A stretch of DNA of 64,000 bases from Halarcobacter sp. (GTDB lineage Bacteria > Campylobacterota > Campylobacteria > Campylobacterales > Arcobacteraceae): contig CP182352.1 of assembly GCA_048571215.1 (NCBI GenBank), positions 2,112,001-2,176,000 of the forward strand, read 5' to 3'. Shown piece by piece: positions 3,569 through 39,594 of the stretch (the first letter of the stretch is position 1; each line of letters begins with the position of its first letter). Below the pieces are notes generated by a model, which was given only the letters and a program-made list of their open reading frames with translations, did not search any database and was not told where the DNA came from. Both the position numbers and the translations under genes were made by a program.

Positions 3569-3620
3569 ATTTATTATAATATGTAATAATATATAATAAA
3601 AAAAATCAAAAGGTTAATCT

Positions 3621-4151: not shown

Positions 4152-4297
4152 ATCTAGGTGAACTTTATTAATAACTTTTTATTGCTTATATTTTTTTATT
4201 AAGTAATTTATCTACAAATATTAAAAAAGATTTATTTTAAGCAAAAAATATAGAATAAAGATTGATTAACGAAATATTTAGGATATTTTAGATATAA

Positions 4298-5029
<732 letters not shown>

Positions 5030-5111
5030 ATTAAAAGGCAAAATTTGCCTACTTTAATTTTTGCTACTTTTATCAATTTTCATAAATTGAGTTAAAATAA
5101 AAAGGAAATAA

Positions 5112-5327: not shown

Positions 5328-5355
5328 TTCTAAAAGTAAAACTTTTAGAACTAAA
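5323..5355. terminator. Perfect 15-bp inverted repeat between rpoZ and spoT (terminator/attenuator or processing hairpin)
   Basis: TTTAGTTCTAAAAGT-AAA-ACTTTTAGAACTAAA. Confidence 0.55.
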
Positions 5356-5364
5356 GGCTAAATT

Positions 5365-7500: not shown

Positions 7501-7525
7501 ATTTTAAAAGAAGGTAAAAGTTTAA

Positions 7526-8734: not shown

Positions 8735-8744
8735 AAGGCCAGTA

Positions 8745-9818: not shown

Positions 9819-9820
9819 AA

Positions 9821-11209: not shown

Positions 11210-11615
11210 TCTTTTCTATTAAGTATTTTTGTTTCTTTTTTATACTAGGTAGATTGTCAATATCAAAGAATTTTGCTTTAGAGTTTTCCCAAGATAGAAA
11301 CTTTTCATTAAGTTTATCATCTAAAAAATACTTTTCGATATTGTCAATTTTATCACAATTTACTATCCAGATTCCTATATCTTTATTTTTATTTCTTTGA
11401 AGAAAAAACTCCTCAAAATGGTGGATTCCAACATTGATGCTACTCTCTTCATAAAACTCTCTTTTTGCACACATTTTAGAGGATTCACTCCCTTGTTGCA
11501 TCCCTTTTAGACAACCCCATTTGTTTAAACTTTTTACTGACTTACATAATAAAATTTTAATCTTTTTATCTTCAAATTTATACGGCAATATACCATATGC
11601 TCTTAACTTTTCCAT
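11172..11615 (-). CDS. NUDIX hydrolase
   Basis: Nudix box-like KG-x5-E-x5-AKREFYEES. Confidence 0.8.
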   Translation of the reverse strand: MEKLRAYGILPYKFEDKKIKILLCKSVKSLNKWGCLKGMQQGSESSKMCAKREFYEESSINVGIHHFEEFFLQRNKNKDIGIWIVNCDKIDNIEKYFLDDKLNEKFLSWENSKAKFFDIDNLPSIKKKQKYLIEKIKDFLENKNQSH

Positions 11616-12682
11616 TATGTCCTATTCTTCTTTCTATAAATAAAATATGAGATTACATACCAAAAAAACATTGGTATTAACATCAGCAATTCAGGCTGTG
11701 AAACACCACTAGCTGAAAACTTATGTAGCATAAAAAACACCCCCCAAATAACTAATGTACCAAATATAGAAAATGAGGTAAAAGTTCCTATATTAAAAAA
11801 TCTTCGATTATTTGAGGTATAAATAAAAATAAGCATAATCAAAGGTATCACAAAAAAAGGAATAATTAAATCATAATAAATTGCCGCTCTAATTCTATCT
11901 GTATTCACCTCTTGTTTTGAAAGTAACATTAAAGCAGAAACAGCATCCAGTATAGAAAATGTTGATCTTTCTTCATATACACTATCTAAAATTTTTGGTT
12001 TAAAGCCTTCTAGTGTGTTTAGAAATTTCTCATATCTTACTTCTAGTTTTGAGCTATTGAAGTTTAATTCTTTTGGTTTTGTAACAATTTTTGCATCAAC
12101 CACATACCATTTATCATTTTGAAAATAAGCTTTTTTGGCAATTATCGTTTCAATAATATCACCATCATTTATCTTGTAGATATGGATTCCTTCTGCTTGT
12201 TTTTGCAAAGGTAATAGCTTTTTAAAATATATAAAATTGTCATTATATTTTAAAAAAATATCAGACTTTGTATTTGTAAAATAATTTCCATCAAGTATTT
12301 TTACCTTTTGCTCATAGGAATAAGCTAAGGGAGTCATCTGTATTGAAATTAATAAAACTAATAAAAGTAAAGAGATATAAATAACAGGAGAATAGATATT
12401 ATATCTTTTTGCGCCAAGAGAAGAAAATGCCACAAGTTCATTATTTCTTACAAAGATTACTAAAGTTACTATCCAAGCAAAAACCAAGCTAAGTGGCAAA
12501 GCTAAAGTAAGTGTGAAAAAGCTATTGTACATTAGGTAAAGTAGTTGTAAGTTAGCTGAGTTAGGTAATTCTTTTACATTTTGAAAAAAATCCATCCCTA
12601 CAAAAAAAAGCTGCAGTGAGATTAAAATAACAAGAAAATTAATAAGATACTTTTTTAAAATATATTTAGTTAATATGCTCAT
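11615..12682 (-). CDS. LPS export permease, LptF/LptG family
   Basis: Three N-terminal TM helices, NELVAFSSLG, periplasmic beta region, three C-terminal TM helices. Confidence 0.88.
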   Translation of the reverse strand: MSILTKYILKKYLINFLVILISLQLFFVGMDFFQNVKELPNSANLQLLYLMYNSFFTLTLALPLSLVFAWIVTLVIFVRNNELVAFSSLGAKRYNIYSPVIYISLLLLVLLISIQMTPLAYSYEQKVKILDGNYFTNTKSDIFLKYNDNFIYFKKLLPLQKQAEGIHIYKINDGDIIETIIAKKAYFQNDKWYVVDAKIVTKPKELNFNSSKLEVRYEKFLNTLEGFKPKILDSVYEERSTFSILDAVSALMLLSKQEVNTDRIRAAIYYDLIIPFFVIPLIMLIFIYTSNNRRFFNIGTFTSFSIFGTLVIWGVFFMLHKFSASGVSQPELLMLIPMFFWYVISYFIYRKKNRT

Positions 12683-12683
12683 A

Positions 12684-13235
12684 TCACTTCAGTGTAAACT
12701 TAGATTTCACAACATCAATTTCTTCACTTTTAAGTGCTTCTATTGCTTTAATTGTGTGAGTGATTATATCCTTTAATTTATTTAATTCCTCTTTTGAAAA
12801 GTTAGATAATACATAATTTACAACTTCACTCTTTTCAGTAGGTTTGCCAATACCTATTCTAACTCTTATATACTCTTTTCCAATATGTGAATCAATAGAT
12901 TTTAAACCATTGTGCCCTCCATGACCTCCACCTACTTTGAATTTTACAGTTCCAAAAGGCAAATCTAAGTCATCATGAATAACAATAATATTTTCTAATT
13001 CTATTTTATAATACTCTTTGATAGCAATTACTGCATCACCTGAGAGATTCATATAAGTTTTTGGTTTTACATAAAGATTATAGCCAGATTTAAAAACATC
13101 TGCTTTGAAGTTTGATTTATTTATATTTGAAGTAGTGAGGTTTTTTAGTATCTCATCGATAACTAAAAAACCTACATTGTGTCTAGTTAGATTGTATTTT
13201 TCACCAATATTACCTAAACCTACTATTAAGTGCAT
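12684..13235 (-). CDS. pth: Peptidyl-tRNA hydrolase
   Basis: VGLGNIG, TRHNVGF, YMNLSG, HDDLDL, GGHNGLKSI. Confidence 0.98.
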   Translation of the reverse strand: MHLIVGLGNIGEKYNLTRHNVGFLVIDEILKNLTTSNINKSNFKADVFKSGYNLYVKPKTYMNLSGDAVIAIKEYYKIELENIIVIHDDLDLPFGTVKFKVGGGHGGHNGLKSIDSHIGKEYIRVRIGIGKPTEKSEVVNYVLSNFSKEELNKLKDIITHTIKAIEALKSEEIDVVKSKFTLK

Positions 13236-23513: not shown

Positions 23514-24503
23514 ATGGACAATGATATAAAAAAATATTTAAAGATTTTAAAAAAGACTGAAAAAAGTATAAAAAAACTTCCTATCAAAGAGCTTGATCAT
23601 GATGTAAAACAACTAAAAAAAGCCTTTGATATAGCTTATGATAATGAAGTTTTTGCCTTATATAAATATGAGAGTACGATACAAGACAAACTTAAATTTT
23701 TACTTTTTTGCAAACTAACAAAATACTCTGGAACTTTATCATTTTTAGCTATTCAAATACTTGCAGCAAACTCCATAATGAATAAAAATAACTTTTCTAA
23801 AAGAAAGTTTTATTTTAATAAAAAATGTGGAATTGCAATAAATCATCTAAGGGTAAATAAAACAATAATCAGTGCAAAAAAATGTAAAAATGGCTATAAA
23901 TTAAATGGAGTATTAACTTGGGCTAGTGGATATAAAATCTTTGATAAATTACTTATTGGATTTCATTTTGAAAATAAAGAGTATGAGGTCTTAACTGATT
24001 TTAAAGTTACAAAAAAATTTAAAATAGCCCAAGCCCCTGAAACTTTAGTTGGATATTCACTAAATACGATAAATGTAAAACTTGAAGATTTTTTTGTAAA
24101 AGAGGAAAATATAGTTTCTTCAAATAGTATAGGAAATTACACAAAAAATAAATCTTTATCAAAAACAGTTCATTATGCTCTATATGGGATAGGTTTAGGT
24201 GCTGTTAAAAATATTGAAAACAAAAAACTAAAAAGCTCTTCAAAAAGTAGATTAAAGAAAATAAAAAACAAGTTTTTAAACTCAAATAATGGTGAAGAAT
24301 TAGATAAACTTAGAATAGAACTTTTTAATTTAATACAAGATGTTATTACTACAGGTATGATTTTAAATGGAGGAAGTTCAATACTTCTTGAAAAAAACCT
24401 ACAAAGATATTATAGGGAACTTATAATGTTCAATTCAAATGGTTTAAACACAAAAATAAAAACTCTTTTTTTAGAAAGTTTTTTAAATAAATATATGCCT
24501 TAA
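23514..24503 (+). CDS. Acyl-CoA dehydrogenase-like flavoprotein
   Basis: GYKLNGVLTWASG and C-terminal GGSS...LQRYYRE resemble the ACAD fold. Confidence 0.65.
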   Translation: MDNDIKKYLKILKKTEKSIKKLPIKELDHDVKQLKKAFDIAYDNEVFALYKYESTIQDKLKFLLFCKLTKYSGTLSFLAIQILAANSIMNKNNFSKRKFYFNKKCGIAINHLRVNKTIISAKKCKNGYKLNGVLTWASGYKIFDKLLIGFHFENKEYEVLTDFKVTKKFKIAQAPETLVGYSLNTINVKLEDFFVKEENIVSSNSIGNYTKNKSLSKTVHYALYGIGLGAVKNIENKKLKSSSKSRLKKIKNKFLNSNNGEELDKLRIELFNLIQDVITTGMILNGGSSILLEKNLQRYYRELIMFNSNGLNTKIKTLFLESFLNKYMP

Positions 24504-24522: not shown

Positions 24523-24801
24523 CTATTGTCCACCACCAACACTTGCATCTAGTTCTGCATGTATATCTTCGTGGGGTGTTTTATTGTAATCATCTTTTGC
24601 ACTTTGTAGTGCATTTATCACTTCATCTATATTTTCATAAGGAATTTCAACATTTCCAACTGCTTTACCAAACTCTGTGATATCTACTTTTACCACTGGA
24701 TCACTATATTCACCATGTGGTTTTTCTACGTGTGAGATTTCTATTCTATCTTCACTAAAATGATGAGCTAATTTTATTGATTTTATATTTTTCTCTGACA
24801 T
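24523..24801 (-). CDS. Small His-containing hypothetical protein, tandem paralog 1
   Basis: AAGGAG RBS; clear paralog of 24957-25238. Confidence 0.85.
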   Translation of the reverse strand: MSEKNIKSIKLAHHFSEDRIEISHVEKPHGEYSDPVVKVDITEFGKAVGNVEIPYENIDEVINALQSAKDDYNKTPHEDIHAELDASVGGGQ

Positions 24802-24956
24802 AATTTGCTCCTTAATTTCTTTTATTGTGACATAAAGAAATAAAGTTAGTTATTAAATATTTATATTAGATTTTAAAATTTAAGTTTGATTTTAGCTAAA
24901 TTGAATTTGAAGATAAAACATATGTTTAAAAAACATATGTTTTATTTGATTAATCT

Positions 24957-25238
24957 TTATTGTCCTCCACCAACATCTGCATTTAGTTCTGCATGCACAT
25001 CAGAATGGGGAATAGAATTAAAAACACTTTTTGCTTTATTTAGTGCATTAATCAACTCATCTATATTTTCATAAGGAATCTCTAACTTGCCACTGCTTTT
25101 ACCAAACTCAGTCACATCAATTTTAACAACAGGATCACTATAATCACCATATGGTTTTTCCACATGACTTACATTGATTTTATCTTTTTTAAAATGGTGT
25201 GCTAACTTAATTGACTTAACTTTTATACTTTCGCTCAT
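24957..25238 (-). CDS. Small His-containing hypothetical protein, tandem paralog 2
   Basis: AAGGAGG RBS; shares KSIKLAHHF, SDPVVK, EIPYENIDE and C-terminal VGGGQ with paralog 1. Confidence 0.85.
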   Translation of the reverse strand: MSESIKVKSIKLAHHFKKDKINVSHVEKPYGDYSDPVVKIDVTEFGKSSGKLEIPYENIDELINALNKAKSVFNSIPHSDVHAELNADVGGGQ

Positions 25239-25552: not shown

Positions 25553-26206
25553 TTATTGAGGTTTGAATGACTTTGTTGTCTTACATACATGAGGGAAAAG
25601 ACACTTATCGCAATCAGGATTTAAAGCTTTGCAAGTATATCTTCCAAACAAAACCATAGCTTGATGAAAAATATGTAAATCCCCTTTTAGTTTTTTAACT
25701 AAATGCTCTTCTGTTTGCTCAACTGTTTTACCATCACTAAGACCTAACCTATGTGATACTCTAAATACGTGTGTATCTACAGCCATAAGATTCGCACCCT
25801 CAGCTTCTATCATAAATACATTAGCGGTTTTATTTCCTACACCTGCAAGTTTTATTAACTGTTTTGTATCATGGGGAATATCTCCACCATGAAGATTTAC
25901 TACACTTTGAGCCATTTTAATAATATTTTTTGATTTATTATTAAAAAAAGAGCAAGATTTTAACAACTCTTTCACATCTTCAAGTGAAGCTTCTGCTAAA
26001 TCAAAAGGTGTAGGATATCTTTCAAATAAAGCAGGAGTTATTATATTTACTCTTTTATCAGTACATTGAGCAGATAAGATAATCGCAATAAGTAACTCAA
26101 AATCATTTCTATAATTTAATTCAGTTACAGCATCTGAATATTTTTCAACAAAGGCCTCTTTTATAATCTGTATATCTTCTTTTGTAGCTTTTTTTATTCT
26201 TGCCAA
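25553..26206 (-). CDS. nth: Endonuclease III
   Basis: LSAQCTDKRVN, HhH motif GVGNKTANV, VDTHVFRV, C-x6-C-x2-C-x5-C Fe-S motif. Confidence 0.97.
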   Translation of the reverse strand: MARIKKATKEDIQIIKEAFVEKYSDAVTELNYRNDFELLIAIILSAQCTDKRVNIITPALFERYPTPFDLAEASLEDVKELLKSCSFFNNKSKNIIKMAQSVVNLHGGDIPHDTKQLIKLAGVGNKTANVFMIEAEGANLMAVDTHVFRVSHRLGLSDGKTVEQTEEHLVKKLKGDLHIFHQAMVLFGRYTCKALNPDCDKCLFPHVCKTTKSFKPQ

Positions 26207-26299: not shown

Positions 26300-26560
26300 A
26301 TGTTTATAAAAAGAAATGAAGAGTTACTATCATCAGAAATGGATGATGAATTAGTTATGATGAATCTTGAATCTAATAATTATTTTGGATTAAATAAAGT
26401 TGGGAAAGATATTTGGGAATTTCTTGAAGAAGAACAAACACTAAATAACTTATGTGAAAAGCTTACAAATAAATATGATGTATCTTTAGAACAATGCAAA
26501 GAAGATATTACTCCTTTTATTGATAAACTAAAAGAGTTAAATATTATTGAAGTATCTTAA
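26300..26560 (+). CDS. Lasso peptide RiPP recognition element (PqqD family, B1)
   Basis: 86 aa; DDELVMMNLESNNYFGLNKVGKDIWEFL...YDVSLEQCKEDI; directly upstream of B2. Confidence 0.92.
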   Translation: MFIKRNEELLSSEMDDELVMMNLESNNYFGLNKVGKDIWEFLEEEQTLNNLCEKLTNKYDVSLEQCKEDITPFIDKLKELNIIEVS

Positions 26561-27005
26561 CTCCTTAATCAATTTTTTAAAAAGACCAAAGAGGGAAATG
26601 CTTTTAATTGTAAAATCATTTCTTTTACTTTTGCAAATTAAATTTCAACTAAAAAAATATAATTTTAATACACTTGCAAAAAAATATAATTTAATCTTAC
26701 AAAAAGATGATATTATCCATAAAGATATAGATATAAAAAAAGTAAAAACAATTGGCTGGGCAGTTGAAAGGTCAGCTTTACTTTTACCTTGGGATGGTTT
26801 ATGTCTTGTAAAAGCCTTAGCAGCACAACAATTACTTAAAAAACAAAACTTATCGGGAACAATTTTTATGGGTGTGAAAAAAGATAAAGAAGGAAAAGAA
26901 TTAGAAGCTCATGCCTGGCTTAAATATAATGATACTTTTTTAACTGGACGAGCTGGACATAAAGAGTTTACTGTTGTCTCAAGATTTACTTGGAGTATAA
27001 ATTAA
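26547..27005 (+). CDS. Lasso peptide leader peptidase (B2, transglutaminase-like)
   Basis: PW..LCLVKALA (catalytic Cys), GVKK, LEAHAWL (His). Confidence 0.92.
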   Translation: MKYLNSLINFLKRPKREMLLIVKSFLLLLQIKFQLKKYNFNTLAKKYNLILQKDDIIHKDIDIKKVKTIGWAVERSALLLPWDGLCLVKALAAQQLLKKQNLSGTIFMGVKKDKEGKELEAHAWLKYNDTFLTGRAGHKEFTVVSRFTWSIN

Positions 27006-27006
27006 A

Positions 27007-28827
27007 ATGAGTAGTTTTAAAGATAAATATATTGATTTTAAAGCACAAATAAAATACTTTCCAAAAACAATAAAACTAATATGGAATGCTTCAAGATTTC
27101 TAATATTTGCTTGGGCGAGTTTACTAATATTTTTAGGAACACTTCCCGCTTTGCAAATATATTTAATAAAACCTCTAGTTGATACATTATCAAATATAGA
27201 AAAAGAAAATATAGATTTAATAATAAATGATTTATACTTGCCAATTATAGTTTTAGCATTAACTTTACTTTTAACTCCAATATTAACATCTTTATTATCC
27301 TATGTTAGAAATATACAAGCCCAAAAGGTGCAAAACTCTATTAGAAAAAAGATTCAAAAAAAAGCAGTATCTTTAGATATGAAACACTTTGAAGATAGTG
27401 AGTATTATAATAAACTACATAGAGCTCATATTGATGCTATTAGTAAACCCATTGCCCTATTAGAAAATATAGGAACCTTTTTTCAAAATATATTAACTTT
27501 TCTTGCTATATTAATTATCTTACTTCCAATTGCTTGGTGGTTCCCTTTAGTTTTAATAGTATCAATCATCCCGTCACTAATCATCTCATTAAAATTTATT
27601 TTAAAACTACATAATCATAGAATAAAAACTACGAAAGATGAAAGAAAATTAAACTATTTAGATTTTCTAATGACAAATAATGAATCAGCTGCAGAAGTTA
27701 GAACATTTAATCTTGAACATTATTTTAAAAAAATTTATTGGAAATTAAAACACTCTATTCAAAGTGAATATTTTTCAATTTTAAAATCCCAATTAAAGCT
27801 TGAAACGATTAGTTCACTTTTCTCTTTTTTTGTTGTTATTATTGTAATGTTATTTGTTGTAAATCAAACATTAAATGGTAATATTTCAATTGGTTCTTTA
27901 GTTATGTATTATTTTGCCTTTACTCAAGGACAAAAGGTCTTAAAAACACTATTTTCAAATATTAGTGAACTATATAAAAATATTATGTTTATTGAAAACC
28001 TATTTGAGTTTTTATCTATTGAGAATTTAAAAATCAAATATGATAAAAAACTAAAGAAAAATGTACCATGTAAAATAGAAATTAGTAATATATCTTTTAA
28101 ATATCCAAAAGCAAATAAATATGCTATTGAAAACTTATCAATGAATTTAGAACCAAATCAAATAACTGCAATAGTTGGAACAAATGGAAGTGGTAAAAGT
28201 ACACTAATAAAACTGCTTAATGCTTTTTACTACTCTGAGACGGGAAGTATAAAAATAAATGATGAAGATATAAGAGATATTGATCCAAAATCCATTAGAA
28301 AAAATATAACAATTCTTTTTCAAAATTTTATAAAATATAATCTAAAAGTTAAAGAGAATATAACTTTAGCAGATACTACAAAAAAAATATCAAAAGATAA
28401 ACTTGATGATATTAGTTCAATAGTAGGAATCAATGAAGTTATTAAAAAACTTCCAAATGAATATGAAACAGTTTTAGGAAGATGGTTTGGTGGAGTTGAA
28501 CTAAGCGGTGGGGAATGGCAAAAAGTAGCACTTGCTAGAGCTTATTTAAAAGATTCGAGTATATTAATACTAGATGAACCAACAAGTGCTATGGACTCTT
28601 GGGCAGAAGCTAAATGGCTAGAAAAATTTAAAATACTGTGCAAAGATAAAACTGCTTTAATAGTAACCCATAGATTTACCACTGCAAAACATGCAGATAT
28701 AATTCATGTAATGAAAGATGGTAAAATAGTTGAATCAGGTAGTCATGAAGAATTAATCAAACAAAATAGTCTTTATGCAACATCTTGGAATAAACAAATA
28801 AAAGAGTTTAAGGAAAAAGATGAGTGA
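27007..28827 (+). CDS. ABC exporter (fused permease-ATPase), lasso D protein
   Basis: TM domain plus GTNGSGKS, LSGGEWQKVALARA, LILDEPT. Confidence 0.92.
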   Translation: MSSFKDKYIDFKAQIKYFPKTIKLIWNASRFLIFAWASLLIFLGTLPALQIYLIKPLVDTLSNIEKENIDLIINDLYLPIIVLALTLLLTPILTSLLSYVRNIQAQKVQNSIRKKIQKKAVSLDMKHFEDSEYYNKLHRAHIDAISKPIALLENIGTFFQNILTFLAILIILLPIAWWFPLVLIVSIIPSLIISLKFILKLHNHRIKTTKDERKLNYLDFLMTNNESAAEVRTFNLEHYFKKIYWKLKHSIQSEYFSILKSQLKLETISSLFSFFVVIIVMLFVVNQTLNGNISIGSLVMYYFAFTQGQKVLKTLFSNISELYKNIMFIENLFEFLSIENLKIKYDKKLKKNVPCKIEISNISFKYPKANKYAIENLSMNLEPNQITAIVGTNGSGKSTLIKLLNAFYYSETGSIKINDEDIRDIDPKSIRKNITILFQNFIKYNLKVKENITLADTTKKISKDKLDDISSIVGINEVIKKLPNEYETVLGRWFGGVELSGGEWQKVALARAYLKDSSILILDEPTSAMDSWAEAKWLEKFKILCKDKTALIVTHRFTTAKHADIIHVMKDGKIVESGSHEELIKQNSLYATSWNKQIKEFKEKDE

Positions 28828-29608
28828 TTTTACATATAGTCTAAAAAAGTTTATATCATTTTTCTTTGAACCTTTAAGTATTTTATTTATACTTTTAACT
28901 ATTATTCTTTTTATATCACTATGTAAAGGGTATAAACAACTTATCCCTCTGATAATTTTTTCAATCTTATGGCTTTTTATTTCAAGTTATCATCCTGTAT
29001 CAGAATACTTTATAAAAGAACTTGAATCCTCTTTAAAACCTTTTCAAGTAGATAAAAAAGATGTTAAGTATATTGTTGTACTTGGAGGAGGGGCAAGGTC
29101 AACTACTTCTGATATACCCAATGCTCAGAAGCTTAAGTATAGTGGATATCAAAGATTTCATGAGAGTATGAGACTATTAAAAGCATATCCAAAATCAAAA
29201 GTTATATTCTTAGGTCCTAAATTAAAAAATAGAACTTATAGTGAAGCTTCTATTTATAAAGAGCTTGCACTAAATGCAAAAGTTGATAATAATAGAATAA
29301 TCATAGTTGAAGATGCAAAAGATACAATATCAGAAGCTAAAAGTGTAAAACAAATAGTTAATAGTGATTCTTTGGTTCTAATTACAACTGCTTTTCATAT
29401 GAAAAGAGCCTCAAAGATATTTAAAAAATATGATATGAATCCTTTATTAGCCCCTGTAAGTTTTGCTAAAACAGGCAAATATAAATGGAGTAAAATTCTA
29501 TCTATTAGTTCAATGTATAGAACTAACATATTACTTCATGAGTATATTGGTCAGTTATGGATAAAAATAAAATACTTTTTTATAAGGGATGATAGATTAA
29601 ATGATTGA
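28820..29608 (+). CDS. DUF218/YdcF (ElyC/SanA-like) membrane-anchored protein
   Basis: Two N-terminal TM helices, IVVLGGG, DTISEA, LITTAFHMKRA, HEYIG. Confidence 0.85.
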   Translation: MSDFTYSLKKFISFFFEPLSILFILLTIILFISLCKGYKQLIPLIIFSILWLFISSYHPVSEYFIKELESSLKPFQVDKKDVKYIVVLGGGARSTTSDIPNAQKLKYSGYQRFHESMRLLKAYPKSKVIFLGPKLKNRTYSEASIYKELALNAKVDNNRIIIVEDAKDTISEAKSVKQIVNSDSLVLITTAFHMKRASKIFKKYDMNPLLAPVSFAKTGKYKWSKILSISSMYRTNILLHEYIGQLWIKIKYFFIRDDRLND

Positions 29609-30815
29609 TAATATCAGTGATAAAATTAAAATAAATCTTCTAAAAATGTTAAATTATAATATAAAGATTGATGATGAATTAAAATCTTTATCTAGTGATG
29701 AGATTGAAGAGATTATATTCTTATGTAAAAGACATCATATAAAAGAGTATTTATATTATAACCTAAAGAAAAATGATTTATTATCACTTCTTTCACAAGA
29801 GCAAATAAAAGATTTAGAAGACTCTTTTAAACAAAAAACTTTTTATAATATGTCTTTACTTGCAGAACTAAAAAATATATCAAAAGAGTTTAAAAAAGAT
29901 AATATACCACTAATTGCACTAAAAGGTCTACATCTTATACAAGATATTTACCCTCATATTGCATTAAGATATTCAAGAGATTTGGATATATTAGTTCCCA
30001 AAAATAAAGGTAAAGCTTCATATGAAACTTCAAAAAGATTAGATTACTACTGTGATAAAAAACTAACAGAATATGACTACTCTTTTAAATATCATCACCA
30101 TTTGCATCAGTTTTTTAACAGTAAAAAGGGATTTATACTTGAACTTCATGCTCACTTAAGTGAACAAATTCATATAAATACCAATAGGCTATGGCAAAAT
30201 TCAAAGGAAGAAAAACTTGATTTAGAAGATTTGATTATTCATTTATCTATTCATATGTCTTATTCAGATATATTTAAAAATGATTTAAGGCATTACTTAG
30301 ATCTTTATGTAGTATTAGAAGAGTTAAAAGATGATATAAATTGGAAAATAGTAAAACAAAGAGCAGAAGATGATAAGTGTTTAGAAGGTATTTATTTAAT
30401 GTTTAAAATCATTGGAATACTTTTTTCTATAACTTTACCAAAAGAGGTAGAAAGTTTTTATTCATATACTAGTCAAAGAGAACAAATAGTAAATAATGCA
30501 ATAGATTTTATGTGGCTTTATGATAAATCTTCACAAGATTATGTATTTTATAGAGCACAAAATATTAGTATTACACAAAGAAACTCTTTATTTAAAAAAG
30601 TATTATCAAGGATATTCATTCCAAAACATGAATTAGCATATATATATTCACAAGAAAAAAACTCTAAGAAGATATATATCTATTATTTTATAAGATTCTA
30701 TGATTTAATAAAAAGACACACATTTAAAATAATTGGTATTAATACAAATGACTCAAAGAAAAAGTTTGTTGAAAAAACTTTATTTGTATATAACTATTTA
30801 AACAAAGGTAAGTAA
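29601..30815 (+). CDS. Nucleotidyltransferase (NTP_transf_5-like; PadeN/PsmN-type lasso tailoring enzyme)
   Basis: IPLIALKG, YP...LRYSRDLDILV, LELH, DLIIHLSIH; lasso cluster context. Confidence 0.85.
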   Translation: MIDNISDKIKINLLKMLNYNIKIDDELKSLSSDEIEEIIFLCKRHHIKEYLYYNLKKNDLLSLLSQEQIKDLEDSFKQKTFYNMSLLAELKNISKEFKKDNIPLIALKGLHLIQDIYPHIALRYSRDLDILVPKNKGKASYETSKRLDYYCDKKLTEYDYSFKYHHHLHQFFNSKKGFILELHAHLSEQIHINTNRLWQNSKEEKLDLEDLIIHLSIHMSYSDIFKNDLRHYLDLYVVLEELKDDINWKIVKQRAEDDKCLEGIYLMFKIIGILFSITLPKEVESFYSYTSQREQIVNNAIDFMWLYDKSSQDYVFYRAQNISITQRNSLFKKVLSRIFIPKHELAYIYSQEKNSKKIYIYYFIRFYDLIKRHTFKIIGINTNDSKKKFVEKTLFVYNYLNKGK

Positions 30816-30820
30816 TAAAC

Positions 30821-32150
30821 GAGACCGTTCAAAAATCTGTGTCAAGTCACCTAAAGTAACAAATCCATACTTGTTACAACTCTAAATAATTATCCAATCT
30901 CCCTTCGAAAAATATAGCAAGTTGGGAGATTGTTAAACTCCAATTATGCACTGGCTGAGTCCATTTTACTTTTGCATTTAATATTCCCATATACAACAAT
31001 TTTAAAAGTGAATTCTCATTAGGGAAAGCTCCTTTTGTTTTGGTTAATTTTCTAAATTGCCTATGTACAGATTCAATAATATTTGTAGTGTACATAATCT
31101 TTCTTATCTCTTTTGGATATTTAAAATAATAAGATAAATTCTCCCATTTATTTTGCCAAGATTGAAGTACTATGGGATATCTTTTCCCCCATTTTTCATC
31201 TAGTTTTAAAAGCTCATCTTCTGCAAGTTCTTTTGTTGTTGCTTGATAAACAAGTTTTAAATCTCTCATAAACTCTTTTTGGTCTTTAGAAGCTACATAC
31301 TTCAATGAATTACGAATTTGATGTACAACACAAAGTTGTACTTCGGTATTTGGATATATTGTTTTAATAGCTTCAGGAAAGCCTTTAAGACCATCTACTG
31401 ATGCAATTAGTATATCTTCTAATCCTCTATTATTTAAATCAGTAAGAACACTAAGCCAGAAGTTTGCTCCTTCACTTTGGGATAAATATAATCCTAATAT
31501 ATCTTTTTTACCATCAATTCCCATCCCTAAAACTGTGTAAACTGCTTTACTCACATACTTCCCACCATCTTTTATTTTATAATGTATCGCATCAAGCCAT
31601 ACAAATGGATAAATAGCTTCTAAAGGTCTACTTTGCCAAGCTTTTACCTTATCTATAATTTTATCTGTAATAGTGCTTATTGTTGCACTTGATAATTGTA
31701 TTTGATATATCTCTTCAATATGTTTTATAATATCTCTATAGCTTAATCCTAAGCCATACATAGATAATATCTTTTCTTCTATTTCATTAGACATTGTTGT
31801 TTGGTTTTTCTTTACAAGTTGTGGTTCAAAAGAACCTGTTCTATCTCTTGGAGTATTCAATTCAAAGGAACCACTTGTTGATTTTATTGTTTTAGAGCTT
31901 TTACCATTCTTTCTATTTTTATTTCCTGCAAATACATCTTGAGTTATATGAGAATCTAATTCTGCTTCTAAAGCAGCTTCAACTAATTGTTTTACTAATG
32001 GAGCAAGTACTCCATCTTTACCATTGATATTTTTACCTGCAAGTAAATCTTGTACAGCTTCATTAAAATCAAATTGTTTTTTCTTTTCCATCTATATCAA
32101 TCCTTATAATATTTATTATATCAGACTGACACAGATTTTCTAACACTCCC
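30821..32150 (-). mobile_element. IS256-family insertion sequence, 1330 bp
   Basis: Terminal inverted repeats GAGACCGTTCAAAAATCTGTGTCA (30821-30844) and reverse complement GGGAGTGTTAGAAAATCTGTGTCA (32127-32150), 19/24 identical. 8-bp direct repeat TAATAAAC at 30813-30820 and 32151-32158. Confidence 0.95.
30874..32091 (-). CDS. IS256-family (Mutator) DDE transposase
   Basis: PRDRTGSFEP, VWLDA, VDGLKGF, QLCVVHQIRN, TTNIIES. Confidence 0.97.
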   Translation of the reverse strand: MEKKKQFDFNEAVQDLLAGKNINGKDGVLAPLVKQLVEAALEAELDSHITQDVFAGNKNRKNGKSSKTIKSTSGSFELNTPRDRTGSFEPQLVKKNQTTMSNEIEEKILSMYGLGLSYRDIIKHIEEIYQIQLSSATISTITDKIIDKVKAWQSRPLEAIYPFVWLDAIHYKIKDGGKYVSKAVYTVLGMGIDGKKDILGLYLSQSEGANFWLSVLTDLNNRGLEDILIASVDGLKGFPEAIKTIYPNTEVQLCVVHQIRNSLKYVASKDQKEFMRDLKLVYQATTKELAEDELLKLDEKWGKRYPIVLQSWQNKWENLSYYFKYPKEIRKIMYTTNIIESVHRQFRKLTKTKGAFPNENSLLKLLYMGILNAKVKWTQPVHNWSLTISQLAIFFEGRLDNYLEL

Positions 32151-32197
32151 TAATAAACTCATTATATATATAAATTGCTATGTTCATTACTATATTT

Positions 32198-33817
32198 TTA
32201 CTCAAATAATTTATATTTTTTTACTAAGCTCATACCTGAAGAAGTTAAAAATGTACTACATTCTTCTTTTATTATAAAAATATCTTTTTCATCTAAATAT
32301 TTATTATAATTATTTATTTTTCCCTCTCTAACTCTAAGACTTTCTTTATTTATGGTGTCTAAATCATATCCTGCTACACCTTTTTCAATTTCAACTTTCT
32401 GCATATTTTCAAAACTTCCATTATTTATTGCTTCAATTATAATTTTATCATCAATAGGTAATTCTAAAAAAAATATCAATTTTTTTATATTTGTATAAAT
32501 ATTTAAATGCATATTTTCATATGTAATAAAAAAATTTGTATTATCACTATTATCAAACAGACTATAATTATTTAATAATTCACAATACTGTTTTAAAACA
32601 TTTGTATTTTTTATAAAATCACACAATTTTCCCTCAAAAATTTTCAAGCGATTTTTTTGTTGAAAATAATCTGATACAATAATTTCAAAAATATTTCTTA
32701 ACAAAATTATTTTAGGGAAGCTATTTATCCCTTCACTTATATTTTTATGACTTGATATGATTAATGGAAACTTACTATTTTCATAAAAATCATATCCTAA
32801 AATACCCTTTATATTTTCATATTCTTCATTTGGCATTAAAGAAAACATATTTTTCAAATTTAAATCTATATTTAAATTAAATATCTTATTAATATATGAT
32901 GCAATAATAAATCTTAACCAAGTCCTTCCTGATTTTGGAATCGAATACAAATAAAATATTTTTTTCCTTTTTAAAATTGAATTGAAAAAATAGTTTTTAT
33001 GATTACTTATTTTTTTTGTAATTTTTGTTTTTTCTTCACTTAAATTAGGCACAAGTTTAAAATTTTTAAAACCAATATCAGATAGTTTTTTTACGTCAAA
33101 AAATACATGACCTAAATCTAATCTAGGGATTAAATCTTTTGAGCATGCTTGCATTGAAGAAGTTATAGTATTATTATTTTGATGAGATATTGTATTATAA
33201 CAAATTCTAGCCGTACAATTATAGGCACAATTAGCGTTTGCAAAAAGTGTAATTCTATCTTTGTTAGGTAATGAAATTAGAAAATCATCATCATCATTTT
33301 TATCCATTGGAATAACAATATTATCATAAATAGTTAATGCATTTATAACTTTTTCAAGAGTATTTAAATTTTTAATTAAACTTGCTTTTATCTTATACTT
33401 AGGAAAGTCTTTCCTTATTTGCTTTGCAAGTTCGTCATTTACACAAACTACAGAATTTCCTTTTTTATGATGCTTTTTAAGAAATTCTAAACTTTCTTTA
33501 TAAGTATTTATATCAAAAGAATGATTAGTTAAAGTCAATGAGACACCTATTGAGTTATCCATTAAAGTTTGAAGATGAAAAGAATCCAATGAATATTTTT
33601 TCTGATATATTCTTCCTCCATATAGTTTACTATATTCAGTTGTTGAACCAAAAATACTTTCAATACTTTTAAAAGGTATATACATATAAAATATTCTTAA
33701 ATAGTCCAAGATATTCATATCTTTTTCAATTCCTCTAGAAGATAGAGTAAATTTAAGGCCTTCAATATTAAAACTATTTTTTACGTCAGATGGTTTAATT
33801 AAATTATTGTTTTTCAT
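32198..33817 (-). CDS. Fusion protein: N-terminal peptidase-U32-like (putative Fe-S) domain plus C-terminal PAPS-dependent sulfotransferase
   Basis: N-half LFANANCAYNCTARICYNTISH...QACSK and GFKNFKL. C-half YSIPKSGRTWLRFII (5'-PSB), LLRNIFEIIVS, ITYE, SFENMQ, LRVREG. The sulfotransferase call is strong; the U32 call is weaker. Confidence 0.7.
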   Translation of the reverse strand: MKNNNLIKPSDVKNSFNIEGLKFTLSSRGIEKDMNILDYLRIFYMYIPFKSIESIFGSTTEYSKLYGGRIYQKKYSLDSFHLQTLMDNSIGVSLTLTNHSFDINTYKESLEFLKKHHKKGNSVVCVNDELAKQIRKDFPKYKIKASLIKNLNTLEKVINALTIYDNIVIPMDKNDDDDFLISLPNKDRITLFANANCAYNCTARICYNTISHQNNNTITSSMQACSKDLIPRLDLGHVFFDVKKLSDIGFKNFKLVPNLSEEKTKITKKISNHKNYFFNSILKRKKIFYLYSIPKSGRTWLRFIIASYINKIFNLNIDLNLKNMFSLMPNEEYENIKGILGYDFYENSKFPLIISSHKNISEGINSFPKIILLRNIFEIIVSDYFQQKNRLKIFEGKLCDFIKNTNVLKQYCELLNNYSLFDNSDNTNFFITYENMHLNIYTNIKKLIFFLELPIDDKIIIEAINNGSFENMQKVEIEKGVAGYDLDTINKESLRVREGKINNYNKYLDEKDIFIIKEECSTFLTSSGMSLVKKYKLFE

Positions 33818-33895
33818 ATAGTATAATATTTTATTTTTACTAATAAAAAGTTTTAAAAAAGCTTCTTAAAATAAATTCATAAAAAAAGGTAGCAT

Positions 33896-34807
33896 TTGTT
33901 TCACTATAAAGCTTTTAATTTACATCTATCAGTCCCATTTGAATGTCCAGAATTAATTGAAATAGATAAAAAAGAAAATGAGTTAGATTTAATATCAGTT
34001 TATTATACTTCATCTTTACCTGAAAAACTAGACAACTTTACCAACTCAGGTCCAACTTTTACTTCAAATAAAAATCAATTTTTATTAAATACAAAAGCAG
34101 ATGTAAAGTTTTTAGTAATAAATGGAAATAAAATATATATTGATTTAGGTGAAGATTGTACAATTGAACAGATGAAACTTTTATTTTTTAGTTCTGTCAT
34201 GGCAGCCTTATTTATGCAAAAGAAGATGTTAGTTTTTCATGCGAGTACCATAAATATAAATGATAAAGCTGTACTTTTTTGTGGAGATTCAGGTCTTGGT
34301 AAATCAACAATTTCAGAAACTTTAGTTAAACAAGGTTATAAAAAACTATCGGATGACATGAGCGTAATATATTATAATAACGAAAAACAAAAAATTATGT
34401 GCATACCATCCTATCCACAATCAAAACTTTGGGAAGAAAGTATAAACTTATTAAATATAGATACTAATGGATTAAAACATGTTCATAATAGATTAAATAA
34501 ATATTTAGTAACAAATAAAGAAAGTTTTTATCATAAAGAACTTCCTGTAGAAAAAATATATATATTATCCATTAATAATAAACAAAATGTATTATTAAAC
34601 GATATAGATAAGTTAAAAGCTATTTATGAAATTGAAAATCAGACTTTTAGAAAAAAATTTTATATAAAAGATGAATATCGAAAGAACTATTTTAATTTAT
34701 TCGTAAAAATAGTTGAACAAGCTACTATTAAACACCTATCAAGACCCTATAAAACGAACTCTATATCTGAAATTAAAAATATATTAAACAATGATTTAAA
34801 TGGATAA
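33896..34807 (+). CDS. HPr-kinase-like lasso peptide kinase (PadeK-type)
   Basis: LVFHAS (His), GDSGLGKST (P-loop), LSDD, PSYPQSKLW. Confidence 0.88.
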   Translation: MFHYKAFNLHLSVPFECPELIEIDKKENELDLISVYYTSSLPEKLDNFTNSGPTFTSNKNQFLLNTKADVKFLVINGNKIYIDLGEDCTIEQMKLLFFSSVMAALFMQKKMLVFHASTININDKAVLFCGDSGLGKSTISETLVKQGYKKLSDDMSVIYYNNEKQKIMCIPSYPQSKLWEESINLLNIDTNGLKHVHNRLNKYLVTNKESFYHKELPVEKIYILSINNKQNVLLNDIDKLKAIYEIENQTFRKKFYIKDEYRKNYFNLFVKIVEQATIKHLSRPYKTNSISEIKNILNNDLNG

Positions 34808-35639
34808 TGGTATTTATTGGATAGTATCATATCCTAAAAGTGGCAATACTTGGTGTAGGATGATTTTAAATAATTATATTGCAAACTTAAATGAACCTTT
34901 AAATATAAATCATTTAAATACAAAATTCATATCTTCAAATAGAAAATTTTTTGATGAGATAATTGGTTTATCATCATCAGATATGAGTGAAGATGAGATA
35001 AAACTATATCAACCTGAAGTTTATAAAGAGTTAATAAAAAACACAAATGAAGATTTATTTATAAAAGTACATGATGCATATATTTTTAATAAAGATAATA
35101 AACCTATATTTCCAGAAGAAATTACTAAAGGGGTAATATACATAGTTAGAAACCCTTTAGATGTTGTAGTTTCATATGCAAATCATATGGATGAAACTAT
35201 AGAAAATACAATTAAAATTCTAAATAATAAAACACATACTTTGGATATTCAATTTGATGAATTAAATATAAGATTACCACAATTTTTAGGAGATTGGAGT
35301 TTTAATGTAAATTCATGGTTAGATTCAAAATTACCTATACATTTAATTAAATATGAAGATATGCTTGACAATACATTTAGTACCTTTTATAAAACATTAG
35401 AATTTTTAGGATTTGATATAGATACAAAAAGATTACAAAAAGCAATAGATTTTTCCTCTTTTAAAGAGTTACAAAAACAGGAAAAAATACATGGTTTTAT
35501 AGAAAAGTCACCTAAAACTAAAAAGTTTTTTAATAGTGGTAAAAAAGATATTTTTAAGGAACATTTAACAGAAAAACAAATAAAATATATTGTATACAAC
35601 AATTTTCATTTAATGAAAAAATTAAATTATATTCATTAA
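34800..35639 (+). CDS. PAPS-dependent sulfotransferase (Sulfotransfer_1)
   Basis: IYWIVSYPKSGNTW, KVH, YIVRNPLDVVVS, IKYEDM, FFNSG. Confidence 0.9.
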   Translation: MDNGIYWIVSYPKSGNTWCRMILNNYIANLNEPLNINHLNTKFISSNRKFFDEIIGLSSSDMSEDEIKLYQPEVYKELIKNTNEDLFIKVHDAYIFNKDNKPIFPEEITKGVIYIVRNPLDVVVSYANHMDETIENTIKILNNKTHTLDIQFDELNIRLPQFLGDWSFNVNSWLDSKLPIHLIKYEDMLDNTFSTFYKTLEFLGFDIDTKRLQKAIDFSSFKELQKQEKIHGFIEKSPKTKKFFNSGKKDIFKEHLTEKQIKYIVYNNFHLMKKLNYIH

Positions 35640-35677
35640 AATGTGATGTATGCACTGCTTTATAAATGGAGGAAAAT

Positions 35678-35821
35678 ATGGAAAAGATTGAATTAGATGA
35701 AAATCATTTACAAGCTGAAAATAAAGAAACTTGGGAAATACCTGCAATAGAAGTTTTAGATACAGATGAAACAAAGGTTGGTGCTCCTGGTCCTTTTGAT
35801 GGAAGCGGGCCATACTCTTAA
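35678..35821 (+). CDS. Lasso peptide precursor (47 aa; not in ORF track)
   Basis: GGAGG at 35668-35672. Manual translation MEKIELDENHLQAENKETWEIPAIEVLDTDETK-VGAPGPFDGSGPYS: WxxPxI leader motif, Thr at -2, Asp at core position 8, C-terminal Ser; lies 16 bp before the cyclase. Confidence 0.92.
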   Translation: MEKIELDENHLQAENKETWEIPAIEVLDTDETKVGAPGPFDGSGPYS

Positions 35822-35837
35822 TCTAGATTAAGTTATT

Positions 35838-37616
35838 TTGAATAGTTTTTTATGTGAATATAAGAAAAATTTTCTTTACCCATTTTCTAATAATGATAAT
35901 ATTGACACTTTCGAGTATAAAAATATAACTTGTACTATAGATAATAAAGATTCTACATATCTAGATATAAAAAATAGTTTTTTTTATATACTTATAGGTG
36001 ATATTTATAATATAGATGAACTTTATATATTAGAAAATCTAAACAAAGAAACTACAAGTAAGTTTGAACTTATCGAAACTTTATATCAAAAATATGATAA
36101 AAATATATTTGATATGTTGATAGGAGATTGGTTTTTACTTATTTATAATAGTGTAATTGATAGCTTAATATTTGCACAAAGCCATCTAGGTTTCTGTGCA
36201 ATATACTACTATATGGATGATAATAAACTTTTCTTTTCAAATACTCTTGAAAAACTTTTAAATATAGATGAGATTCCTAAAAAAGTCAATTATAATTATA
36301 TTAAAAATATACAACTATTTTCCATACCAAACCAATATAATGAAACCTCGTTTTTACATATCAAAACTTTAAATCCTGGGAAATATATGTATATAGATAA
36401 AAACAACTTTATACATAAAAAATATTGGTATCCTGAAAATCTAGAAAAGAATAAATCTATCAAAAAAGAAGAAGCTATAATTAAAGTAAAAGAGATTTTC
36501 ACTGAAGCTATAAGAGCTAGAATAAAAGATAAAACTATAGTAAGTTCAATGCTTAGTGGTGGATTAGATAGTAGCAGTGTTTCTATTATATCTTCAATAT
36601 TACTAAAGGAAAAAAATAAAAAATTAAATTGCTTTAGTCATATTCCAGCTTTTGATGTTGATAAAAATAAAATACCAAAAAATAGAATATCAAGTGAAGA
36701 AAAGTTAATATTAAAAATATTAGATAAATATCCAAATATAAAAGAAAACTTTGTAGATTCAAAGCAATACACAATACTTGATGGTATAGATGAGTATATA
36801 AATACTTTCAATGAAATACCACTAAATCTTAATGCTTATTGGTTGATAGATATTTGTAAAAAAGCTAAAGAATTAAATTCAGATATTTTACTGACAGGAG
36901 ATTTAGGAAATTATACAATCTCTTATAAAGGAGCTAAAAATAGTTTAAATATATTTAAATATTTTAAATTGTTTGGTTTGAAACATACCCTTAAAGAAAA
37001 AGTGATAAAAAAGTTAATATTCTACAAATACAAAACTATTTATACTATAAATTCTACTTTTATAAAAGAAAGCTATATAAATAAAAGATATATAAATAGA
37101 TATAAATTATTTAAGTTTAGACTTATCAAAATGAATTATTTAAATAATGGAAAGTTTATGTTAGCTGGGCATTATCAAAGAGCAAAGATTATGGGTGGAT
37201 TTGTATCACAGCTTCAATTAAATATAAGTGACCCAAGCTCCGACAAAGAACTTATTGAGTTTCTTTATCAATTGCCACAGGAGTTCTTTTTCAGTAAAAA
37301 AGGGGAAGAAAAAGATATAATAAAAAACTTTATGAAAGATTTAACGCCAGATAAAGTCTTGTTTCAAAAGAAAAGAGGACTACAAGCTTCTGATATTTTT
37401 GAACGTATATTATTGGATGTTGATAAAATAGAAAATATAATAAAAAACTTTAAAACAGATGATTTAGATTTTGAACTTTTCAATAAAACAAAAATGTTAG
37501 AAGACCTAGAAAGATTAAGAAAAAAAGAATTACCTTTAGAATCATTACATTCTTTAGTAAAAACTGTAGCCCAAATGAAATTTATAAATTATGTTAAAGA
37601 TAAATATAAAGTCTAA
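35838..37616 (+). CDS. Lasso cyclase (asparagine-synthetase-like, C protein)
   Basis: Degenerate N-terminal glutaminase-like domain, SSMLSGGLDSSSV PP-loop, LLTGDLGN, DPSSDKELIEF, KRGLQA. Confidence 0.9.
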   Translation: MNSFLCEYKKNFLYPFSNNDNIDTFEYKNITCTIDNKDSTYLDIKNSFFYILIGDIYNIDELYILENLNKETTSKFELIETLYQKYDKNIFDMLIGDWFLLIYNSVIDSLIFAQSHLGFCAIYYYMDDNKLFFSNTLEKLLNIDEIPKKVNYNYIKNIQLFSIPNQYNETSFLHIKTLNPGKYMYIDKNNFIHKKYWYPENLEKNKSIKKEEAIIKVKEIFTEAIRARIKDKTIVSSMLSGGLDSSSVSIISSILLKEKNKKLNCFSHIPAFDVDKNKIPKNRISSEEKLILKILDKYPNIKENFVDSKQYTILDGIDEYINTFNEIPLNLNAYWLIDICKKAKELNSDILLTGDLGNYTISYKGAKNSLNIFKYFKLFGLKHTLKEKVIKKLIFYKYKTIYTINSTFIKESYINKRYINRYKLFKFRLIKMNYLNNGKFMLAGHYQRAKIMGGFVSQLQLNISDPSSDKELIEFLYQLPQEFFFSKKGEEKDIIKNFMKDLTPDKVLFQKKRGLQASDIFERILLDVDKIENIIKNFKTDDLDFELFNKTKMLEDLERLRKKELPLESLHSLVKTVAQMKFINYVKDKYKV

Positions 37617-37620
37617 TATT

Positions 37621-39594
37621 TTAAATCTTCTTAATCTTTTCTATTTCATCTCTTAATCTAATAGCCTCTTCAAAGTTCAAGTCTTTTGCAGCTTTTGTCA
37701 TCTTTTTATTTAACTCTATTAAGATTTTTTTACGCTCTGCTGCTGGCATTTTTTCTATTTTATTTTTCTTCCATGCCAAATCATCATACTCTTCTAATTT
37801 TAGACTTTCCTCTAATCTTCTTATTGTAGAGGTTGGTGTTATATTATGCTCTTTATTGTATGCTTCTTGTATCTCTCTTCTTTTATTTGTCAAATCAATT
37901 GCATACTGCATAGAGTCTGTGATTCTTTTTGCAAAAAGTATTACCCTACCATTTTGATTTCTTGCAGCTCTTCCCATAGTTTGAACTAAAGAGGTTCTAC
38001 TTCTAAGAAAACCTTCTTTATCTGCATCAAGTATAGCTACTAGTGAAGTTTCTGGGATATCAAGTCCCTCCCTTAGAAGGTTAATTCCAACTAAAACATC
38101 AAACTCACCAAGTCTTAACTCTCTTATGATTTGGTTTCTTTCAATAGCATCTATATCACTATGCATATATTTTACTTTGATACCTAAGTCTTGATAATAT
38201 GTCGTTAACTCTTCTGCCATTTTTTTTGTAAGTACTGTTACTAAAACTCTTTCATTTTTTTCAGTGACTTTTTTTATCTCATCATGTAACTTTTCAACTT
38301 GAAACTCACTATCTATTACCTCAACAACAGGATCTAAAAGTCCAGTAGGTCGAATAATTTGTTTTGCAACAACATCACTTTTTTCTATTTCAAGTTCAGC
38401 TGGAGTTGCAGATACAAAAAGGTAGTTTGGTGCTTTTTTTATAAACTCATCAAACTTTAAAGGTCTATTATCTAAGGCACTTGGAAGTCTAAAACCATAA
38501 TCAACAAGAACCTCTTTCCTACTTCTATCAGCTGCATGCATCCCTCTAAACTGAGGAAGTGATACATGAGACTCATCAACTATAAGTAAAAAATCTTTCC
38601 CTATTTGTTCAAAATAATCCATCATAGAGTATGGGGTTTCACCAGGTTTTAAACCAGTAAGATGTCTAGCATAATTCTCAATACCCTTACACATTCCAGT
38701 ACTTTCAATCATCTCTAAATCAAACTCAACCCTTTGTTTAAGTCTTTGATACTCTACTCTTTTATCCTCTTTTTCATAATACTTTAGTCTCTCATCTAAC
38801 TCTTCTTCTATTTGTTTTACTGCTCGACCTAAATTCTCACTTGTAACAACAAAAGGATTAACTGAATAGATTATTGCTTCATCTAACTCTTTTCTTTTTT
38901 CATTTGTTAGATATTCGTGTTTAGTTATAGATTCAACCTCATCACCAAAAAACTCAACTCTAATAAACTCATCTTCATAATATGCCGGAAAGATATCTAT
39001 AACATCTCCATTTACTCTAAAATCAGCTCTATCAAAAAAACTATCATTTCTCTTATAACCCATCTCAACAAGTTTTAGTAAAAACTGTCTTTGTGAATAT
39101 TCAAAGCCCACTTCTATTCTTTGAACCATTGCTTTATATTCACTTGGATTTCCTAAACCATAGTTTGCAGAAACTGAAGCTATAACAATTACATCATCAA
39201 AACTAAGAAGTGATGCAGTTGCACTAAGTCTTAATCTTTCAAGTTCTGCATTTATAGATGAATCTTTTTCTATAAATAAATCAGTTCTTGGTATATAAGC
39301 TTCTGGTTGATAATAATCATAGTATGAGATAAAATATTCCACATGGTTGTTTGGGAAAAAAGCTTTAAATTCACTATAAAGTTGAGCTGCAAGGGTTTTA
39401 TTATGAGTCATAATAAGTGTGGGCATTTGTGTTTTTTCAATCACCTTTGCCATAGTATAGGTTTTACCTGAACCCGTTACACCCTCTAAGGTTGTATATC
39501 TATTCCCACTTAGGATAGAATCACTTATCTGTTTAATTGCAACAGGTTGATCACCTGCTGGTTTGTATTCGCTATTTACTTTAAATTTTGCCAT
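37621..39594 (-). CDS. uvrB: Excinuclease ABC subunit B
   Basis: [35 protein letters not shown]-terminal UVR domain. Confidence 0.99.

Follow-up and report, generated by a model that had tools for sequence, protein, structure and literature searches.

In the genome of a Halarcobacter species, a lasso peptide island contains a gene for a 539-aa protein that joins a predicted U32-like TIM barrel to a SULT-type sulfotransferase domain, a new variant of a known enzyme type in a new biosynthetic setting. By analogy with U32 hydroxylases, we propose, with a probability of roughly 45%, that the barrel carries a 4Fe-4S cluster and hydroxylates Tyr13 of the lasso core without O2, and that the fused domain then sulfates the product from PAPS. 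The fusion gene (P0001) occupies positions 32198..33817, on the minus strand, of the window, i.e. the whole 64,000-nt stretch of DNA analysed here.

The fusion gene lies in an inserted lasso peptide island

The island (26300..37616, with genes on both strands) was delimited by same-genus comparison and GC content. Because nth (25553-26206) and uvrB (37621-39594), which flank it, adjoin in 12 of 12 same-genus genomes, where about 16-920 bp separate the end of uvrB from the start of nth, the island represents one insertion; its GC content is 24.2%, compared with 28.5% for the genome. It begins on the plus strand with genes for the lasso B1 leader-binding protein (PqqD/RRE; 26300..26560; PF05402; NF033536 at 79.7 bits, cut-off 80), the B2 leader peptidase (26547..27005; NF033537 above cut-off), an ABC exporter (27007..28827; PF00005 and PF00664), a DUF218/ElyC-like protein whose gene overlaps those on both sides (28820..29608; PF02698), and a nucleotidyltransferase (29601..30815; NTP_transf_5, PF14907). 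An apparently intact insertion sequence of the IS256/Mutator family (30827..32144, minus strand; PF00872; inverted arms at 30827-30844 and 32127-32144) separates the nucleotidyltransferase gene from the fusion gene, with its transposase (30874-32091) directly downstream of the latter.

The fusion ORF has an ATG start and no internal stops. As described in the first-pass annotation, it is divergent, across 78 bp, from a plus-strand gene starting at 33896, which encodes an HPr-kinase-like lasso peptide kinase (33896..34807; PF07475). The remaining plus-strand genes encode a second, standalone sulfotransferase, ST_b (34800..35639; PF00685), which is about 25% identical to the fused domain and belongs to a type common in kinase-type lasso clusters, the 51-aa lasso precursor (35666..35821), and the asparagine synthetase-like lasso cyclase (35838..37616; PF00733; NF033535 with E 4e-44, below cut-off). 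The gene content is that of a kinase-type (paeninodin-like) cluster, with NCBIfam scores of B1 and the cyclase under their cut-offs. The precursor has a W-x-x-P leader with Thr at -2, and its leader motif is common to 15 other precursors. The predicted 14-residue core (35777-35818), whose boundary we placed by the Thr(-2) rule of lasso peptides, contains a putative ring acceptor Asp8, a single Tyr at position 13 (35813-35815), a terminal Ser14, and no His. No collar or GT8 genes were found in the island.

Outside the island, two tandem paralogues of 92-93 aa (24523-25238; 69% identical) are located downstream of nth; most relatives have a single copy and L135 has two. The nearby 329-aa ORF at 23514-24503 has no Pfam match and is weakly similar to oxygenase components of flavin monooxygenases.

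The N-terminal domain is a predicted distant relative of U32 proteins

Residues 15-262 of the fusion protein (33032..33775, minus strand) match no Pfam or NCBIfam model. The structure model of this domain (pLDDT 96.6) is a predicted TIM barrel with a clear top structural match to PDB 5D88 (Mk0906), at 11-12% identity. Alignment of profiles with hhalign gave 65% (E 8e-6) in global mode and 43% (E 2.5e-4) in local mode for canonical U32, and at most 0.4% for six controls; an earlier run against a low-diversity template had given 0.4%. PF01136 does not match the fusion protein at E≤0.1, let alone at its gathering cut-off, finds the canonical gene alone in the host genome, matches 2 of 131 homologues weakly (best E 0.0066), and is assigned to 13% of the members of the rank-8 Atlas cluster.

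The Cys pattern reported earlier is present as written (N194, N196, C197, C201, C206, Y207, S211, H212 and C225, followed by G249-F253-K254). The pattern exceeds what chance would give: its four Cys, encoded at 33143-33229, occur without exception in the aligned homologues (77 of 77) and are near-invariant in a more diverse set of 131 (C197 in 130, C201 and C206 in 131 each, C225 in 129), whereas N196 is kept in just 17 of the 131 and H212 is likewise poorly conserved. The four Cys are placed after strand 7, and three of them align with canonical U32 Cys in the profile alignment. Their spacing, CX3CX4CX18C, matches none of the three published U32 spacings, namely the canonical CX6CX15CX3/4C and the variants of UbiU and UbiV (10.1101/587956). 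The U32 enzymes TrhP and RlhA also have an essential Glu eight residues ahead of the first Cys (E162 and E161, respectively; PMC6599085); the 131 homologues have no conserved Glu there, columns 188-190 being occupied by R/K, I/V, and I/R/V/T. The strand-6 RE and strand-8 EGR residues of U32 are absent from the N-domain in the profile alignment. Thus, the proposal of a U32-like N-half agrees with the predicted fold and profile homology and disagrees with the Cys spacing and the conserved Glu. We regard the domain as a predicted distant relative of U32 iron-sulfur hydroxylases, with a barrel that likely binds a 4Fe-4S cluster.

Loss of the catalytic Glu and of two U32 motifs would also fit a barrel that is not an enzyme, and four Cys within a short stretch could bind Zn. 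Such a barrel might serve as a metal-binding scaffold or as a redox or O2 sensor, with a role in peptide binding or in gating of the sulfotransferase, and the many standalone copies that are orphans at variable sites are compatible with this. We consider it quite improbable, given that the Arg, Asn, Ser and Lys of the barrel core are near-invariant in the 131 sequences, resembling an active site, and that the standalone and phage copies described below speak for an activity of the domain's own.

The C-terminal half is a SULT-type sulfotransferase

The C-terminal domain (residues 290-519; 32261..32950, minus strand) is a PAPS-dependent sulfotransferase of the cytosolic SULT (aryl/steroid) type, with predicted activity. 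The earlier assignment from the PKSGRTW motif, which begins at residue 294, is upheld by PF00685 (E 6e-18; 65.6 bits against a cut-off of 22). SULT motifs are found at residues 294 (5'-PSB loop), 374 (3'-phosphate Arg/Ser), and 495 (C-terminal RxG), and H357, near-invariant among the 77 aligned homologues, aligns with a His of 1AQU; we presume that these residues, including the catalytic His, have their usual roles in the fusion protein. The best solved relatives, according to the profile of the 77 homologues, are estrogen sulfotransferase and SULT1B1, and the bacterial ones are the glycopeptide aryl sulfotransferases Teg12, Teg14 and StaL. PF00685 is present in 76 of 86 homologues of 296-944 aa.

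Fused forms belong to a lasso-associated branch

The U32-like domain has at least 342 representatives at 50% identity (E≤0.001), which Pfam misses. In the 150 family genomes, it was detected in just one other, as a weak match (E 1e-4) at L003 (G003:C15:50724-51173) within a 1526-aa frame of the family relative. The host genome itself has a second, standalone copy, which closes a different lasso cluster, L004 (G000:C1:762000-781999, 872-11026). This cluster encodes AspH, GNAT, three tail-collar proteins, two more sulfotransferases, GT8, PqqD, a cyclase, a kinase, ST_b, and a precursor (6108-6281, minus strand). Tail-collar triplets recur next to lasso machinery in many loci.

Among 75 loci examined in other genomes, 28 show one or more lasso genes, and 14 of the 16 fused forms are among these. 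Another 45 are standalone copies near which no lasso gene is visible (a sulfotransferase is visible in 17 of these). This goes partly against the reading of the first-pass annotation, which named occurrence mainly at unrelated loci as a ground for refuting it, although nearly all of the 45 belong to a separate branch. A quick-search tree of 98 domains recovered a lasso branch of 41 rows from several phyla (SH-aLRT 91), which takes in every fused form (20) together with 17 standalone forms of the lasso type (of these 17, three are on short contigs and were grouped by their GT8 neighbours), and an orphan branch (SH-aLRT 98), containing 41 of 42 orphans and 6 of 7 phage-like copies. Together with the insertion and the neighbourhoods of the homologues, the tree assigns the fusion gene to the cluster, which had previously been inferred from position. 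The lasso-branch hosts are, we assume, largely anaerobic or microaerophilic lineages; the orphan branch includes aerobic ones, and host lifestyle therefore does not establish an adaptation to oxygen.

ST_b loci were gathered without reference to the domain (79 metagenomic loci, from the best 80 of 578, and 46 regions from 42 genomes). None of the 38 lasso-like metagenome loci from this best 80 of 578 carries the U32-like domain, which is thus accessory.

Related loci were also noted. At L023/L278, five precursor copies lie in tandem; the locus also has a sixth copy, along with two cyclases, a U32-like gene in standalone form and one sulfotransferase. A kinase-PqqD-nucleotidyltransferase cassette without a cyclase is found in a polysaccharide export locus of four family relatives (L122:4755-6115, L124:8137-9486, L125:6458-8955 and L123:5352-9160); in three of the four, the kinase gene follows an ORF of 69-71 aa whose leader is twin-arginine-like, and the cassette possibly specifies a RiPP other than a lasso peptide, or else a peptide that anchors a glycan.

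The domain accompanies a second sulfotransferase and occupies a hydroxylase slot

The hydroxylate-then-sulfate logic suggested in the first-pass annotation is favored by two lines of comparative evidence, a coupling to second sulfotransferases and a shared slot with AspH. Its fusion partners are Sulfotransfer_1, _2 and _3 domains, in either order, as well as DUF4915 and TPR. Second sulfotransferases, TPR types excluded, were counted at 76 lasso loci that are at least 8 kb long and carry both the kinase and ST_b: 22 of 22 loci that have the domain possess one, as do 2 of 4 that have AspH alone and 1 of 50 that have neither (3 of 50 when one duplicated locus pair, added by a motif scan and Pfam, is included); 11 of the 22 cases are fusions, the counts ignore kinship, and the HMMs for the extra sulfotransferases were derived from domain-holding loci.

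In another fusion protein, P0107, the domain is joined to a Sulfotransfer_3 partner, 815 homologues of which were found in the length range 306-977 aa. AspH, an O2-dependent Fe/2OG enzyme, is annotated on 68 of the 119 best-listed homologues and was detected by a local HMM in 75 of the 119, always N-terminal; the U32-like domain occurs in none of these 119. Since AspH is N-terminal to the same Sulfotransfer_3 type, the U32-like domain sits in a hydroxylase slot. For the window gene's own sulfotransferase subfamily, AspH is listed in 0 of 15 homologues. L004 and L071 hold both AspH and a U32-like gene, and the two are therefore not mutually exclusive.

Phage cassettes (L226-L231 and L073) combine the U32-like gene with genes for Fe/2OG, sulfotransferase and APS-kinase-like proteins, mostly after tail-fibre-like genes. 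Among six viral loci, Fe/2OG oxygenases are adjacent in four, and one has a sulfatase-like gene. A copy from the orphan branch comes first in the operon at L039, L046, L050, L052 and L283, which also has a GNAT-like ORF, TauE, cysD and cysNC; in the Syntrophaceae-type operons, TauE, cysD and cysNC are seen in L039, L050 and L052, and cysD and cysNC in L283. The copies in L046, L050 and L052 are near genes for a GLUG-repeat surface protein and a sulfotransferase.

A domain that joins at least three sulfotransferase types, in both orders, might have the sulfate donor as the common factor. The fused sulfotransferase could then sulfate Tyr13 directly (+80 Da), leaving to the barrel a role in sulfation such as redox chemistry of the donor (supply or recycling of sulfite, APS, PAPS or PAP), with the peptide untouched. 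The sulfotransferase and APS-kinase-like genes downstream of the domain in 4 of 6 viral loci and the domain-headed operons with TauE, cysD and cysNC are real evidence in its favour; it would also fit the presence of APS-kinase/CysNC genes in 7 of 38 lasso loci without the domain and 1 of 28 with it, the missing U32 Glu, and the RiPP sulfotransferase SslST, which acts on Tyr directly (PMC11143521). In our estimate this reading is unlikely: the domain occurs where cysD/cysNC sets are complete and does not substitute for them, the host has its own cysD, cysN/ATP sulfurylase and two APS kinases, and an enzyme of donor supply would be expected neither to track a second sulfotransferase over ST_b nor to occupy the AspH slot. 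No U32-fold protein with sulfur chemistry was found in the literature examined.

Tyrosine is the candidate target in the core

To compare cores, a single pattern that requires a terminal Ser was used on both locus sets. With the domain, it gave 29 cores at 21 of 29 loci (eight gave none); all 29 contain Tyr, in 25 within the last six residues, and with the window and L004 added, 23 of 23 loci are Tyr-bearing. Without the domain, Tyr is present in 8 of 17 cores (from 15 of 45 metagenome loci) and in 9 of 15 of the Bacteroidales-type set and 1 of 2 others, or 18 of 31 pooled, with one duplicate pair merged and L181 counted once. The difference has a Fisher p of 2e-4, or 4e-3 when the domain set only is collapsed to 13 lineages, for raw cores of uncontrolled length and counts that are not phylogenetically independent. 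Pro (24 of 29 cores with the domain vs 12 of 17 without) and Phe (12 of 29 vs 12 of 17) do not track the domain, so that among the candidate targets named earlier these two lose ground and Tyr is retained. His is also enriched (22 of 29 vs 4 of 17).

Of the 18 Tyr-positive loci without the domain, 6 have either AspH within the cluster or, elsewhere in the genome, an orphan copy that is not linked to it. The third lasso cluster of the host, L120 (G000:C1:597000-614000, 7523-13108), which encodes PqqD, B2, a kinase, a 39-aa precursor, an unassigned 362-aa ORF and a cyclase, has no sulfotransferase, no U32-like gene and no Tyr. Genome G232 has three clusters: Tyr is present in the two that carry the fusion, L009 and L030, and missing from the third, L274. 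ST_b is probably not Tyr-specific, because 13 ST_b clusters (L158, L169, L181, L195, L207, L221, L252, L254, L258, L260, L262, L265 and L274) have Tyr-free predicted cores. Every cluster with the domain has an extra sulfotransferase, to which alone the Tyr signal may therefore belong; as the two always co-occur, this signal by itself cannot separate the hydroxylase from the extra sulfotransferase.

AspH belongs to an aliphatic hydroxylase family, and the hydroxylation may for this reason not be on the ring. A credible if unlikely reading is an O2-independent hydroxylase coupled to a sulfotransferase, with the hydroxyl placed on the beta-carbon of Tyr or Asp, on Pro, on a sugar that the nucleotidyltransferase or the GT8 enzymes attach, or on a co-encoded protein such as tail-collar. 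The swap partners of the domain, AspH-family and Fe/2OG enzymes, typically hydroxylate aliphatic carbons; GT8 is encoded at 13, the nucleotidyltransferase at 11 and collar at 8 of the 28 lasso-linked loci with the domain (the collar match in L012 is putative), and the viral copies come after tail-fibre genes. The lasso hydroxylase CanE yields beta-OH-Asp (PMC8498205). These points are offset by the window island, which has neither a collar nor a GT8 gene, by Pro, which is absent from 5 of 29 cores and unenriched, and by the characterised U32 substrates, all of which are aromatic rings, the proposed mechanism requiring an oxidisable ring (PMC10990095).

A model for O2-independent hydroxylation and sulfation

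In the model that we infer for Fe-S binding, target residue, position, oxygen donor and order of steps, the barrel would hydroxylate the penultimate core residue, Tyr13, independently of O2. UbiU/V act on octaprenylphenol, and by this analogy the likeliest product would be a ring-hydroxylated catechol (DOPA), with prephenate as the putative oxygen donor; a prephenate mechanism has been proposed for UbiU/V acting on a phenol (PMC10990095). Transfer of sulfate from PAPS to the new hydroxyl by the fused SULT domain would yield DOPA-O-sulfate (+96 Da). Ser14 would be the target of the kinase, for phosphorylation, and a further site that of ST_b, for sulfation. More tentatively, the domain could represent a U32 subfamily with a new ligand set that acts as the O2-free counterpart of Fe/2OG enzymes, its lasso branch converting Tyr to DOPA and then to a sulfate ester. 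Bacteria and phages would then share O2-free hydroxylate-then-sulfate modules, and the DOPA oxygen would derive from prephenate.

The prevailing view takes U32 proteins for prephenate-dependent, O2-free hydroxylases. As of 2024, direct activity had yet to be demonstrated and in vitro assays were still awaited (PMC10990095); the substrates are hydrophobic and unavailable (10.1101/587956). The fusion gene offers a 250-residue soluble barrel and a 14-residue, genetically encoded candidate substrate, with a built-in sulfation trap and a clear mass readout (+16 and +96 Da) that make the question of U32 activity directly testable. If the model is correct, RiPP tailoring would gain its first U32 enzyme and lasso peptides a new residue, and U32 chemistry could be assayed in vitro for the first time with one polypeptide and a small soluble substrate. 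The fusion gene would also extend lasso tailoring chemistry and predicts which lasso clusters with a kinase and sulfotransferase have a second layer of modification.

Comparison with known systems

In the open literature, we found no paper on a U32-sulfotransferase fusion or on U32 proteins in RiPPs, and the accessible portions of PMC13417212 and PMC13381572 do not describe the fusion. The accessible part of a lasso review (PMC8498205) names the sulfotransferase just as putative and describes no such fusion. According to this review, paeninodin and pseudomycoidin clusters share B1, B2, cyclase, ABC exporter, HPr-like kinase and nucleotidyltransferase with the window island, together with a putative sulfotransferase and a terminal Ser in the precursor; the window adds the U32-like/sulfotransferase fusion and DUF218. 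The lasso hydroxylases named there are CanE (canucin A) and the unassigned ResE (RES-701). Both resemble our model in a hydroxylated residue near the lasso C-terminus and differ in that neither is coupled to sulfation: CanE is an O2-dependent Fe/2OG enzyme acting on the Asp beta-carbon, whereas ResE, as an unassigned hydroxylase, acts on Trp.

SslST, RaxST, Teg12, Teg14 and StaL share with the fusion the PAPS-dependent sulfation of a peptide phenol, but their acceptor is an existing phenol and a fused hydroxylase is absent. Fusions of AspH to a sulfotransferase are widespread (P0230-P0348, e.g. P0273, P0284 and P0301), and some include TIGR03032/DUF4915 as a third domain; no characterisation of them was found in the open literature. 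They too place a hydroxylase-type domain before a sulfotransferase, which is of the Sulfotransfer_3 subfamily of P0107, P0108 and P0145. In contrast to the window gene, their hydroxylase-type domain is an O2-dependent Fe/2OG domain and their sulfotransferase is not of its SULT type.

The closest known relatives are the U32 hydroxylases (UbiU/UbiV, TrhP, RlhA; 5D88), with which the N-domain shares the predicted TIM barrel, the four Cys and the Arg/Asn/Ser/Lys core. Its replacement of an O2-dependent hydroxylase parallels that of UbiIHF by UbiUV (PMC10990095), and likewise TrhP parallels TrhO (PMC6599085). Unlike them, the N-domain is distant from 5D88 in sequence, negative for PF01136, and divergent in Cys spacing and at the conserved Glu; it is fused to or paired with sulfotransferases in a RiPP cluster, whereas the known U32 members act on RNA or a quinone precursor.
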